Source: Malacoraja senta (lineage: Eukaryota). From it: DNA of 64,000 nucleotides. This document shows positions 23,936 through 64,000 of the stretch, piece by piece. The stretch is taken from assembly GCA_038087875.1 (NCBI GenBank), contig CM075991.1, positions 5,952,001 through 6,016,000 of the forward strand. Direction: 5' to 3'. Each line of letters starts with the position of its first letter. Within the stretch, counting starts at the first letter, position 1. Position numbers and translations under genes: made by a program. Under the pieces are notes generated by a model. It saw only the letters and a program-made list of their open reading frames with translations. It did not search any database and was not told where the DNA came from.

Positions 23936-24716
23936 GATACTCAAACAATGCAACACTTTTAGGGTTATTTTAGGTTAAAAGTAATAGCCCTCATTTGCAA
24001 AGGCACCATCGGGGGATCTCTGACATAAATATAGGCTCATTGTAGGTTAAAATGAATACTCATCAAGGAAACATCAGAGCATTCGAATCTTGGTCAGGAT
24101 TGACATTCACATCAGAAATAAGACAGGTCTCTTACAGGTCTGTCACCCAGGTTAATTCTCTCGTGGGTGTTGAGCACCATTCCGCAATGTCCAACCCCGT
24201 AAGGTTCAATCGGTATGTAATCTTCCGCCGTCCTGGAGGAGACTGGAAAAAATCAAGGCAGGACAAAGCGTAGCAGCGTGAATCACATTGGGGGAGCAGT
24301 GAGAGACTGTCTCGCAGTGGCATTAAATTACATTTAGACGGGCTCGTGGATGGGAAAGGTTGAAAGGGACATGGACCAAACACAGGTAGCGGGGACTAGC
24401 ATGAGTGGGATATGTTGGTCGGCATGGGTACGTTGGGGTAAGGGGCAGTTTCGTTGCTGCATGACCCTATGACTCGAACGGTGATATGGAGGTTGTGGAG
24501 GCCAGTGAGTTGAAAGGTGGGACTAGAGAAACTCCACCTCTCTTCGTGAAAGTTGAAAGACTGGTTCTCCAAGGCGGAGAATAAAGTCTGCAGACGGTTC
24601 CAGCGGGACAGAGGTTGGCCGCTCAGACACTGCGGAAAATAAAATCTGCAGGCGGTGTCACCAGAAAATAAGTTGCCCTCTCAGACACTTGGGAGAAGCG
24701 ACCTGGTTGGGAGATA

Positions 24717-27700
24717 ATGGTATGTACGGTGCAGCTTTTCGGTATTTGGGTGTTGTTTGGTCTTCGATAAACTGACGTTGACAAAACTCGATTGCCTGAG
24801 CTATAGGGAGAGGTTGGGGACGCTGGGAATTAAACCTTGGCAGCGCAGAAGCATGAGGTGTGAACATAGAGGTGGGTAAAATCATAAAGGAAATAGATAG
24901 ATTCAATGTACAGAGTATTTTAAGCGGACTTGGGAAATACATCACCAGAGGACATGAATTCAAGGAGAAATTTAATAGGAGCCCCGGCGTCAACTTTTTC
25001 ACACGGAGAGTGGTGGGTGCATGCAACGATAAGCTTTGTGCATCTGGCTGTTGCTGGGTGACAGCTGTACAACCGCCTGCCGCGGCGATGGTGACAGGGA
25101 CATGTTGCAGTCTTAGTTACTTAACCACGTCGATCATCGAGCTCCTTATTTCTCTCCCTCCTTGCCTCCGCAGAAACTCCTTTTGTGCATCGCTCTGCTG
25201 CTTCTCGCTGCTCAGCTGTCGGAATCCGGCTGCTTCTTTCAGCGACAGAAGACAAGAGGTAATCTATCAATGTGAATCTCTCTCAGATCTGGTAGTTCGG
25301 CCCACCGAGACCGCGCCTTTCAACAATCACCCGTACACGAGTTCGAGGGACTAGGGACAATTAGGGACACTAGGGACAATTTACCTAAGCCAATTAACCT
25401 ATAGACCTTCTGGTCTTTGTAATGTGCGAGGAAGCCGGAGTGCCGGTGAATACCCATGCGGTCACAGGGAGAATGTGCAAACTCCTTACACAGAGCACCC
25501 GTAATCGGGGTTGAACTCGGGTCTCTTGTGCTGTAAGGCAGCAACTCTACCGCTGCGCTGCAGTGCCGCGTAAGTTAGCCATTCATGGGTCCCGGCGCCA
25601 GGCAGACGAGGGCTCCACCCGAGCCGACTGCCTGTCCCTTTTCCGGGGTTACGACCAAAGATACTAGAGGAGTATCTTTGGTTCCGACGGCGCCCTGCTG
25701 ACCCTTGAAAAAGAACACGCAGTGCCCACTGGCACCATGGTGGCATTCCAGGAGCGCTGGGCGCCGCTGGGGATTGACTGGGGGGAGGCTGGGTGTTAAG
25801 TCGGGGTGTTGAAGACTGAACCCGGGTTAAACGGTACAGTGTGGCCAAGGGCCAGGTCCGGGTCAGTACACAAGAGGATGGATGCTGGCTCTTCTCACAC
25901 GTTTTGACGGCTCATTTCATGGGTGCCTTGGTATTGAGCGAACACAAGAGACCCTCTCCCTCCCATGTCCTCGGATCACTCCACTCCCTGATGGGGCACT
26001 GACCATCCGCTGTCTTTATCACCAACAGCCAGAGGCAGACCCCGGATGCTCATGAGGTGCATTGATAAATCTGATGGGACGGTTCATCACATCGGAGAAA
26101 GTTGGTACAGTTCCAACTGTCTGAAATGCGAGTGTTCGTCTGATGGTTATGAATGCTGTGAATTGTAAGTAATCCTCCGCCATCCAAAGGTCATGATCTG
26201 ACCCCAGCGGCTGAAATTGCAGTGTAGAGCTTGGGTGGGTATTGCCGATGTCAGCCAGTGAGCCGAGTGGGGTTGGCGATGGATTAGGACTTGATGGGCA
26301 CAGTCGACGGAACGGCCTGAGCGCCGACTCTCCCCATCTCTGTGCTAAACCCGATACACAGGCTCGGGCCCGAATCTGGTTTTAGGTTGGGATCGGTAGA
26401 GGAGTCTTGATGGAGGGAGGAAAGGAGAAACTGCATGGCGGACAGTGATGTACAGTCGAAGCCAGCCATAGAGGCACACGGCAAGGACACAGGCCCTTCA
26501 TCCACCGAGCCCATGCCGACCATCAACTGCCCATTTACTCGAATCCCACCCTAACCCATTAAAGTCTAACATGTAGACACAAGGAACTTCAGATGCTCGT
26601 TTAATTTTTTTTTTAAACCGCATTGGCTGGAGTAACTCAGTGGGTCAGGGCGCATATCTGGAGAACATGGATAAGCGACTTTTCGGGTTTGGACCCTACC
26701 TCAGAGTGACTGCACCTCCGACCGCTCCCAGTCCCGGCCACCAAATGGGACTAATTGGAAAGGTCGCGTAGACAAGAGGGTCAAGAGCCAAGATTGTCTT
26801 GTGTAGGATACAAATGCAGATGCTGGTTTAAATCGAACGTGGACACAAAATGCTGGCGTAACTTAGCAGGACAGGCACCATCTCTGGAGAGCAGGAATGG
26901 GTGACTTTTCCGGCGATACCCTTTTAGTTTAAGAGTGTCTTGTTGTCATAGGTGCCAGATAGAAAATGAAATCCAAACTTACTTGTGTATGATGCAGAAG
27001 AGTTGCAGTCTGCGCCTCTGAGTTACTCCAGCACTTTTGCGCCTTTTTCAAAATTGTGTATACACACACACGCACACACACACACACACACACACACACA
27101 CACACACGCACACACACACATACACACACACGCACACACACACACACTCTCACACACACACACACACACACACATACACACACACATACACACACACACG
27201 CACACACGCACACACATACACACACACATGCACACGCACACACACACATACACACACACATACACACACACATACTCACACACATACAACACATAAACAC
27301 ACACACACGCACAGACACACACACACACACACACACACACACACACACACACACACACACATACATACACACGCACACACACACACACACATACAGACAC
27401 ACGCACACACACACACACACACAACCGATTACCATTGCAGGAATGGGTGACATGAGAGCAGGAATGGGTGACTTTTCCGGCGATACCCTTTTAGTTTAAG
27501 AGTGTCTTGTTGTCATAGGTGCCAGATAGAAAATGAAATCCAAACTTACTTCTGTATGATGCAGAAGAGTTGCAGTCTGCGCCTCTGAGTTACTCCAGCA
27601 CTTTTGCGCCTTTTTCAAAATTGTGTATACACACACACGCACACACACACACACACACACACACACATACACACACACACACATACACACACACACACAC

Positions 27701-28359
27701 ACGCACACACAGACACACACACACATACACACACACACACGCACACACACAAACACACACACACATATATACACACACACGCACACACACGCACACACAC
27801 ACACACACACACATACACACACACACATGCACACGCACACACACACATACACACACACATACACACACACACACACTCACACACATACAACACATAAACA
27901 CACACACACGCACACACACACACACACACACACACACACACGCACACATACAGACACACGCACACACACACACACACACACACATACAGACACGCGCACA
28001 CACACACACACACAACCGATTACCATTGCATACATACAGACAATAATTGTGAAAAGGCAGAGACAATACCCCCAGGTCTATGTAGTCTGGAGCACATTTG
28101 GAGGTCGTTGTGTTTAATAGCCTGATAGCTACAGAGAAAAAGCTGGGAGGGGGGCATCCTTTTGTGAGCATCCTTGGTGACTTTGACGTTCCGAATCGTT
28201 CACCATTGAATCTCTGATCTGTTCCCCAGGTATTCCACGCCAGCTAGTTTCCCAAAAAGTTGTACCGTACTTTTCGATCGTAAGGCTTGTGAGTTTCGAT
28301 TCCATGTGCAGTCCGACCCCTCTGCCGAGTGTCCAGTGCTTGCAGCTGTTGCGAGATGA
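24717..28359 (+). CDS. MSMB-like: Beta-microseminoprotein (PSP94)-like gene A, intact; exons 24717-24719, 25174-25258, 26029-26164, 28230-28359; 117 aa
   Basis: GT-AG introns, phases 0/1/2; [117 protein letters not shown]; signal peptide + 10 Cys; AATAAA at 28365 and 28451. Confidence 0.92.
26888..28030. repeat. Tandem duplication (2 x ~570 bp) each containing ~370-390 bp of CA repeat, in intron 3 of gene A
   Basis: Units start agagcaggaatgggtgacttttccggcgatacc at ~26888 and ~27455 and end caaccgattaccattgca. Confidence 0.92.
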
Positions 28360-28869
28360 GCTGCAATAAACCGGCAGCTCCCTTCCAAAGTGGAGATATT
28401 CCTCAATGGGATACAGAAGCGTTGCCTCTTGCATGTAATGTCTGCATCGCAATAAACATATACCAAACCCATTCTATCGTCGGCTGCGTCGTTTTAATAA
28501 GAAATGGGGGTGAATATGAGGAGACTTTGGGAGATGTTTTGGCGCACTTGGGAACTTGAGCGTCTGAGAAATTCTAAGTTAGAGTGCGTGCAAGTAAACG
28601 TTCTAAGAATCTATTCAGCTGGAAGTGGGGAAGTCGATAACATTAATATCAATAACAAAATCTATGAAATAAATCATTTAACTGAAAAGTATTACATTTC
28701 AAATATTTAATGATACATAGTTTTGAAAGAAGCGCTTGTTGTATTTAGATGCATTGGTCATCTTACATACTTAAATTCAGCTTGGATTGCATCCTGCAGA
28801 TGGAACGGTGCCGCACGTGAGCTCACAACTGGAACAAGGAGGGAGAAACGAAACAGAGGACGACTGACC

Positions 28870-63548: not shown

Positions 63549-63810
63549 TCCGAGTGACCGCATCTCCGGCCGCTCCCAGGCTGGGTCCACTGACTGCGAT
63601 CGACTCGAACACTCCAGAGCTGCTACCTGGCCCGCTGAGTTGCTTCAGTACTTTGTGTCCTTTTTTTAAATTCTTCAGACGCCTGAACTCTGGGGACAAA
63701 CTGCATTGGCAAATTCATCACCAATGTGCGGTCCTGGCACTTGGATGGAACGTACGTTGTAGCGGGTTAACAATTGCTAACCTCCACGCGAGGTTAGGAT
63801 TATTCTGCAA

Positions 63811-63940
63811 GGAGAGAGAGAGAGAGAGAGAGAGAGAGAGAGAGAGAGAGAGAGAGAGAGAGAGAGAGAAGAGAGAGAGAGAGAGAGAGAGAGAGAGAGA
63901 GAGAGAGAGAGAGAGAGGAGAGAGAGAGAGAGAGAGAGAG
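63811..63940. repeat. (GA)n microsatellite
   Basis: Direct inspection. Confidence 0.95.
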
Positions 63941-64000
63941 GGGGGGGGTGGTGTTCACCGCGCTACCTCAGACCATGCATTATTCCTGCATCATTCTACC

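Follow-up and report, generated by a model that had tools for sequence, protein, structure and literature searches.

Results

We analyzed a 64,000-nucleotide stretch (the window) of the 1.94-Gb genome of the skate Malacoraja senta, C15:5,952,001-6,016,000 (contig CM075991.1, here C15), which carries part of a tandem array of genes of the PSP94/MSMB/USM/MSMP family (Pfam PF05825). Feature coordinates are window positions unless a contig is named. Self-comparison and exon profiles agreed on seven units, paralogous to one another, from 24.7 to 62.2 kb of the window (A, B, F, and G on the forward strand and C, D, and E on the reverse strand), at the places and on the strands proposed in an initial annotation of this DNA. 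That annotation had described all seven as four-exon units; five of them (A to E) are complete four-exon genes, but F lacks exons 2 and 4, and G is probably a pseudogene because its exon 4 has a broken acceptor and a frameshift.

The introns of genes A to E are of the GT/GC-AG type in phases 0, 1, and 2, the initiator ATG forms the 3' end of exon 1, and the coding sequence specifies a hydrophobic leader and 10 mature cysteines, with an AATAAA ∼90 nt past the stop codon. Coding exon lengths are 3/85/136/130 nt in A and B, 3/85/118/130 nt in C and D, and 3/82/118/130 nt in E, where a GC donor follows exon 2. The intron phases, the 130-nt last coding exon, and the 10 mature cysteines of the initial annotation were confirmed in the complete genes, and its 85-nt signal-peptide exon in A, B, C, D, and G but not in E. 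Its ATG-only first exon stands insofar as the exon-1 motif, GAT(C/A)ATG directly followed by the donor GT, is kept in the promoter alignment of the paralogs, but it is uncertain for C and G, where a further in-frame ATG lies 75 nt and 78 nt upstream, respectively. The same alignment showed promoter conservation but no motif attributable to a tissue.

Gene A (forward strand) starts with the coding ATG of exon 1 (24717..24719), set in the conserved motif; exon 2 (25174..25258, 85 nt) encodes the signal peptide and the first mature cysteine, exon 3 (26029..26164, 136 nt; PF05825 E value, 8e-4) encodes six cysteines, and exon 4 (28230..28359, 130 nt coding) encodes three and has AATAAA both 6 and 92 nt past its stop codon. 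Gene B, also on the forward strand, comprises the coding ATG at 33088..33090, exon 2 at 33266..33350 (85 nt), exon 3 at 34826..34961 (136 nt), and exon 4 at 35587..35716 (130 nt; PF05825 E value, 0.037). Read from exon 1 to exon 4 on the reverse strand, gene C occupies 42519..42521 (coding ATG), 42255..42339 (85 nt), 40701..40818 (118 nt), and 39457..39586 (130 nt; PF05825 E value, 0.005); gene D occupies 46935..46937 (coding ATG), 46666..46750 (85 nt), 45088..45205 (118 nt; PF05825 E value, 3.1e-4), and 43833..43962 (130 nt); and gene E occupies 52694..52696 (coding ATG), 52462..52543 (82 nt, GC donor), 51442..51559 (118 nt), and 50748..50877 (130 nt). Unit G (forward strand) has its exon 1 ATG at 60409..60411, exon 2 at 60593..60677 (85 nt), and exon 3 at 62082..62199 (118 nt); its exon 4 lies 245 to 375 nt past the window end, with AT in place of the AG acceptor and a 1-nt frameshift.

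The exons place these genes in the PSP94 family. All six exon-3 translations tested matched PF05825 (E values, 3.1e-4 to 5.2e-3; the best match in five of six), as did two of six exon-4 translations; at 17.8 to 21.7 bits, single exons lie just beneath the curated cutoff of 22 bits, and full-length Leucoraja orthologues score 38.6 to 46.3 bits. A profile built without shark, ray, or skate sequences gave 14 exon matches in the window (7 to exon 3 and 7 to exon 4) and none in the reversed window, in five shuffles, or in bases 1 to 24000; its members had been retrieved with the window's exon 3, and only the exon-4 matches are independent of that selection. Against a local nonelasmobranch profile, the spliced products scored 77 to 106 bits, and gene L, at the far end of the array, scored 53. 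In PDB searches, the exon-3 profile matched the snake small serum protein SSP-2 best (E value, 8.8e-7), and the first five matches of the exon-4 profile were MSMB chains. The fold of the family is all-beta with two domains; an AlphaFold model of the Leucoraja orthologue of D is all-beta in its mature part (pLDDT, 73; pTM, 0.53), and its top five Foldseek matches were all MSMB or SSP-2. The family is defined by ten conserved cysteines in the mature chain (PMC3268785, PMC8167871), which mature A to E all contain, and the four coding exons with the ATG at the 3' end of exon 1 are those of the MSMB/USM type, MSMP having three coding exons (PMC3268785). The PF05825, PDB, and fold matches thus uphold the PSP94/MSMB/SSP assignment made initially. 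A VWC/fn1 identity of exon 3, the top Pfam match of gene A, was ruled out by exon 4, the cysteine count, and the full-length orthologues. A single exon 3 used as the query in a word-indexed protein search found no homologue.

The calculated pI is 8.4 (mildly basic) for A, 4.4 to 5.1 for C, D, and E, and 4.2 to 5.1 for C, D, E, J, and K together; the skate products are thus mostly acidic, like the human, pig, and snake members and unlike the cationic chicken MSMB3. A divergent paralog at C15:3,812,800-3,819,509 (reverse strand) encodes eight cysteines and is missing both partners of the disulfide that in MSMB3 joins the first cysteine to the second of the CC pair, a paired loss that, judged from sequence, would be consistent with the disulfide pairing of the family. 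The products of genes B, C, D, and E carry a C-terminal Gly-Lys, like many fish members; of 86 proteins, 44 end in G, GK, or GR. C-terminal Gly-Lys is a possible amidation signal. In purified chicken MSMB3, the last Gly is mostly gone, with an unexplained deficit of ∼1 Da per chain (PMC9363672, PMC8167871).

The cluster continues ∼62 kb past the window end, to C15:6.078 Mb, with units H, I, I', J, K, and L, and two further sub-clusters lie on the same contig at 3.76-3.82 Mb and 4.94-4.975 Mb. Altogether, the three sub-clusters contain at least 26 exon-3-bearing units (13 + 8 + 5), and 10 of the 14 units modeled are intact with 10 cysteines. The window cluster and the 3.76-3.82-Mb cluster are inverted duplicates of each other at ∼90% identity (85 to 95% over kilobases). 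Unit I' is 99.0% identical to unit I over 6.6 kb near a gap and may be an assembly duplicate. A whole-genome PF05825 search gave no matches at E ≤ 0.001 and 23 at E ≤ 10, of which 19 fell within the three sub-clusters. Two of the other four proved to be a VWC-type exon and one a LINE sequence; the fourth is a separate three-exon PSP94-family gene at C1:358,390,688-358,395,534 (reverse strand), with a 7-residue spacer before the CC pair, which we take to resemble MSMP, though diverged. A match at C13:4.909 Mb was rejected as repeat sequence.

Orthologues are present in RefSeq for Leucoraja erinacea, Rhinoraja longicauda, and Amblyraja radiata, where they are machine-annotated as beta-microseminoprotein-like or small serum protein-like. 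L. erinacea has at least 11 such genes (XP_055518139 to XP_055518472) on one 15.6-Mb chromosome, and four accessions, cluster members included, belong to Hypanus. The exon-3 profile retrieved 45 proteins, and the 20 looked up were microseminoprotein, small serum protein, USM1, or unnamed. A second, word-limited protein search, which is not a census, yielded 23 PF05825 proteins: 9 from Leucoraja, 5 from Rhinoraja, and 1 or 2 each from other rays, catsharks, and the coelacanth. Spliced window products aligned end to end with Leucoraja proteins, in seven of nine comparisons without an internal gap, and our splice models therefore agree with the RefSeq models. Identity to the Leucoraja counterpart is 78% for A, 85% for C, 79% for D, and 71% for E; B, at 56%, has no close counterpart. 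In contigs from two public runs, which belong to one study, are unspliced, and may stem from the source sample, exon 3 of A is found without any difference and exons 3 and 4 of B with 1 difference over 1655 nt.

In a tree of 52 proteins, units A to I group with their skate relatives in a clade of 23 rows that contains skates only (support, 96/90) and in which window genes pair with Leucoraja genes; the stingray copies form a clade of their own. Lineages A, C, D, E, G, and K have open frames in Leucoraja, and several also in Rhinoraja or Amblyraja. The arrays of these three skates are orthologous to that of M. senta and use the same junctions, but G is broken in M. senta. The RefSeq names are partly misleading, several of the skate genes being called prostate-associated microseminoprotein-like although MSMP has three coding exons.

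Strong diversifying selection acts on the intact copies. We used 10 intact genes, leaving out G, I, L, and a 9-Cys copy, and our own codon-model code, whose likelihood under the one-ratio model M0 equals that of IQ-TREE. Omega under M0 was 1.36, and the site models with positive selection were strongly preferred (M2a over M1a, 2dL = 63.8; M8 over M8a, 2dL = 62.8), with ∼40% of codons at an omega of 3.4; across three frequency models, 2dL for M2a over M1a was 65.6 to 68.3. Tests per exon on each exon's own tree were significant for both exon 3 (2dL, 16.7 and 8.3) and exon 4 (24.8 and 24.2), and 40 neutral simulations with discordant exon trees reached a 2dL of at most 5.96. Consistently, in 8 of 11 pairs, similarity was lower between mature exons than between alignable introns; the pairs are nonindependent, and in distant pairs the comparison favors introns. 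The 19 signal codons gave an omega of 1.22 by maximum likelihood, not significant, and 0.54 by counting, and we make no claim of selection for the signal peptide. The birth-and-death expansion and diversification in a cartilaginous fish, proposed in the initial annotation, is supported by the skate-only clade and these selection tests.

According to the 2011 family study of Frankenberg, MSMB genes flank FAM21C and ANUBL1, whereas USM and USMH genes flank ARID5A and resemble snake SSPs (PMC3268785). In M. senta, FAM21/WASHC2 (CAP-ZIP_m) and ZFAND4-type (zf-AN1) exons lie at C14:4.05-4.13 Mb, and no family exon was found in the surrounding 200 kb (C14:4.02-4.22 Mb). Since this locus is on a different contig from the cluster and showed no family gene, the array genes are probably not strict MSMB orthologues. 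On C15, 0.2 to 0.6 Mb downstream of the cluster, there are exons of PCNA, a CDS-type cytidylyltransferase, a gene with PH and RhoGAP domains whose top PDB match is KIAA0053, ANTXR, and NFU1; a RhoGAP exon searched in PDB gave no discriminating match. Presumably, this order corresponds to the CDS2-ARHGAP25-ANTXR1-NFU1 segment of chicken chromosome 22. Chicken chromosome 22 is the one named as the ARID5A chromosome in PMC3268785. The cluster thus likely lies on the ANTXR1 paralogous segment, the home of lizard USMH and marsupial USM. The loop between Cys 2 and Cys 3 is 19 residues, as in SSP-2 and tammar USM1, and we consider the array more likely than not to be orthologous to USMH/SSP.

Gene L, at the array end (C15:6,072,268-6,078,375, forward strand), has exons of 85/103/109 nt and a 17-residue loop and is devoid of the tail strand; an exon 1 of this gene was not found. 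It matches MSMBs rather than SSP-2, and its 85- and 103-nt exons and 17-residue loop are as in chicken MSMB3, so that L would represent the MSMB type within the presumed USMH segment. We also observed that C14:6.24-6.36 Mb and C15:6.51-6.67 Mb are paralogous segments, each with an ANTXR gene and an NFU1-like neighbor.

The first strand of PSP94 mediates its binding to cysteine-rich secretory proteins (CRISPs), whose sterol binding PSP94 blocks (PMC8857485). The skate genome carries a PI16 gene, one exon of which is 99% identical to that of Leucoraja, compared with 71 to 85% for the orthologues of A, C, D, and E. A model of the complex between the Leucoraja orthologue of E and the CAP domain of PI16 scored 0.77 (best control, 0.02), with ≥94% agreement of contacts and a partner pLDDT ≥ 86; its interface uses both terminal strands of the E orthologue, and the first strand is conserved. 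The mark applied to such scores is reached by 51 of 78 solved pairs, 2 of 108 mismatched pairs, and 39 of 65 eukaryote pairs without a like complex. Because a like complex has already been solved, the model shows likeness rather than binding. At C11:12.50-12.59 Mb of the same genome, we observed at least eight tandem CAP-domain exons, which we take to be of the GLIPR2 type.

The remainder of the cluster consists of broken units and orphan exons. Pseudogene F (forward strand) retains the exon 1 ATG (55539..55541), with no exon 2 downstream, and a frameshifted 107-nt exon 3 (57271..57377), with no exon 4 downstream. Upstream of B, an orphan exon 1 (ATG at 32267-32269) with the start of intron 1 (32182..32578, forward strand) is 97% identical to positions 24632-25029 of gene A, which cover its exon 1 and 300 nt of intron 1, whereas intron 1 is short in the 3.80-Mb duplicate of gene A; this points to a recent exon-1/promoter swap or conversion. 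Three orphan copies of exon 4 lie on the reverse strand: one with a frameshift near its end and one cysteine lost (48540..48668), a partial one (49199..49291), and one of 127 nt with an open frame, an intact AG acceptor, and three extra cysteines (50012..50138). The last sits 610 nt downstream of exon 4 of gene E, of which it could be an alternative last exon. A decayed exon-1/intron-1 remnant is found at 58586..58864 (forward strand).

Within intron 3 of gene A (26887-28030), a 567-nt unit is tandemly duplicated and accompanied by long (CA)n tracts, and intron 2 of gene J (5.7 kb; C15:6,044,844-6,050,563) contains reverse-transcriptase- and recombinase-like frames of a DIRS-type element. Recognizable content of bases 1 to 24000 is limited to transposon remains, namely, an integrase (255-1244), LINE endonucleases (3515-4540 and 13032-14204), a reverse transcriptase (8943-10403), and a tyrosine recombinase (17942-18514), with a 1-kb inverted repeat at 6986-7971/19413-20432.

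Discussion

The initial annotation had called this cluster hidden and contrasted a single copy in humans with the expansion in pit vipers. The first point is not supported, and the contrast overstates the rarity of such arrays: orthologues are in RefSeq for three skates, the 2011 study used one Leucoraja expressed sequence tag, which it left unassigned, and it lists arrays of 14 copies in opossum, 7 in anole, and 3 each in chicken and zebrafish (PMC3268785), so that tandem arrays with between 3 and 14 copies have been reported from several vertebrates. That these genes exist, and what they are, is not new, and arrays of this type, like their rapid evolution, have been described in snakes, lizards, marsupials, and monkeys. 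Our literature searches, with subscription journals and supplements outside their scope, found no published description of the skate cluster. What is new is that a single contig carries three sub-clusters with at least 26 exon-3-bearing units in all, which largely form a clade confined to skates, together with strong diversifying selection, a non-MSMB locus that is likely the ANTXR1 segment, and a CAP-binding model of a Leucoraja orthologue. What purpose the repeated vertebrate expansions of microseminoproteins serve has been described as obscure (PMC8167871).

The closest likeness is to the snake SSPs (habu SSP-1 to SSP-6) and to lizard and zebrafish USMH, which also have four exons, a long exon 3, and accelerated evolution, and which likewise form tandem arrays with inversions and pseudogenes, likely on the same paralogous chromosome segment. 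The skate expansion is nevertheless independent of that of the snake SSPs and larger (at least 26 units versus 6 in habu). We know of no venom context for the skate genes, skates being, to our knowledge, not venomous, and neutralization of their own venom is therefore unlikely. With mammalian and avian MSMB/PSP94, the skate genes share the ten-Cys pattern, the ATG at the end of exon 1, the 130-nt exon 4, the fold, rapid evolution, and predicted CAP-domain binding. However, opossum and chicken MSMB arrays flank FAM21C/WASHC2 and ANUBL1/ZFAND4, which the skate array does not, and the skate Cys2-Cys3 loop is 1 to 2 residues longer.

SSPs bind venom CRISPs, metalloproteases, and phospholipases A2 and evolve at an accelerated rate (PMC7150969, PMC6609765). 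We tentatively favor the explanation that the array is a skate-expanded set of PSP94-family genes, likely of the USMH/SSP branch, whose secreted products bind extracellular proteins and were diversified by conflict in defense; the odds we give it fall slightly short of even. The products would be secreted beta-sheet proteins with five disulfides that bind and block extracellular proteins. Their conserved first strand and C-terminal strand would pair edge-on with a CAP-domain protein of the PI16/CRISP type, as in PSP94 and SSP-2, and their variable surfaces would be shaped by conflict with foreign targets. In our reading of the model, the CAP-binding edge may be retained while the remaining surface responds to a changing set of other ligands.

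Several results weigh against this explanation. Foldseek TM-scores are low (0.28 to 0.44) for a model with a pLDDT of 73, and pairwise counting gives a mature dN/dS of only 1.00 (1.19 without cysteines). The published USMH neighbors ARID5A, KANSL3, and ELP3 were not located in genome searches: ELP3 (PF16199) and KANSL3-type (PF20408) profile searches were blank, and none of seven ARID matches was ARID5. The 85-nt exon 2 and 130-nt exon 4 are closer to those of chicken MSMB3 than to those of anole USMH (94 and 106 to 115 nt), and the deep tree does not unite the skate genes with SSP/USM (root nodes, 48/76). The complex model used Leucoraja rather than window proteins, and its score may reflect recall, by the predictor, of the SSP-2/CRISP structure already solved. 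Finally, the selected sites are not enriched in the CAP interface (8 of 22 versus 29 of 70; P = 0.80), and a CAP partner hence does not explain the selection. Related genes in other lineages are, moreover, reproductive: marsupial USM is found in the egg coat, zebrafish usmh transcripts come mostly from the reproductive tract, chicken MSMB3 is oviduct specific, and human PSP94 is seminal (PMC3268785, PMC8167871).

These last observations favor a rival in which the same genes and fold serve as reproductive-tract proteins (in egg jelly or capsule from the oviducal gland, or in seminal fluid) whose partners are sperm or endogenous proteins of the CRISP/PI16 type, with sexual conflict or egg protection driving diversification. 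Skates lay egg cases with a long incubation, the live-bearing rays sampled carry a separate and smaller set of copies, and the modeled partner would be an endogenous CAP protein. Yet egg-laying catsharks gave one match per species in our word-limited search, and the chicken paralog specific to eggs is a conserved, cationic protein, in contrast to the fast-evolving and mostly acidic skate products. We consider the reproductive explanation rather unlikely, although we place defense ahead of it only because selection is strong and the products are acidic and SSP-like. Direct antimicrobial action on microbial surfaces appears improbable: human PSP94 is reportedly active against Candida, and gene A encodes a mildly basic product, but the products of C, D, E, J, and K are acidic, and the antibacterial activity of chicken MSMB3 is tied to cationic clusters (PMC9363672, PMC8167871).

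The array could also be read as mostly neutral birth and death in a duplication-prone, repeat-rich region, with redundant copies under relaxed constraint except at their cysteines. Over half of the 26 units are either disrupted or missing parts, duplication and inversion have affected entire blocks, and pairwise mature dN/dS is close to 1. Nevertheless, the site models reject omega ≤ 1 (2dL, 63 to 68, against a null maximum of 6.0), and lineages A, C, D, E, G, and K were kept open in Leucoraja, which largely refutes neutrality for the intact copies; we give it little credence overall. It is very improbable that much of the copy number is an assembly artifact of uncollapsed haplotypes. The repeat of unit I as I' and an orphan exon from 5.636 Mb that is found again on contig C1302 hint in that direction, but the sub-clusters differ by ∼4 to 15%, introns included, and the window paralogs are far more divergent, with separate Leucoraja counterparts.

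Extending the defense explanation, one may imagine, although we regard it as unlikely, that venomless skates independently built an SSP-like library of more than 20 diversifying decoy inhibitors. Here the CAP-binding edge would be fixed and the rest varied to counter, in blood, mucus, or the egg case, proteins secreted by parasites (leeches, flatworms, or copepods) or by microbes, with the same locus keeping the MSMB-type gene L beside a USMH-type array. If so, MSMB and USMH would have originated in tandem, as a pair that predates the vertebrate genome duplication and is not its product.

The skate array exceeds those of opossum (14), anole (7), and habu (6) in size and shows a clear signal of selection in a nonvenomous animal, and it has orthologues in the little skate, a laboratory species whose tissue RNA data are public. 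It bears on the question of whether the antivenom SSPs were recruited from an older family of diversifying binders, and its locus bears on the origin of MSMB and USMH.

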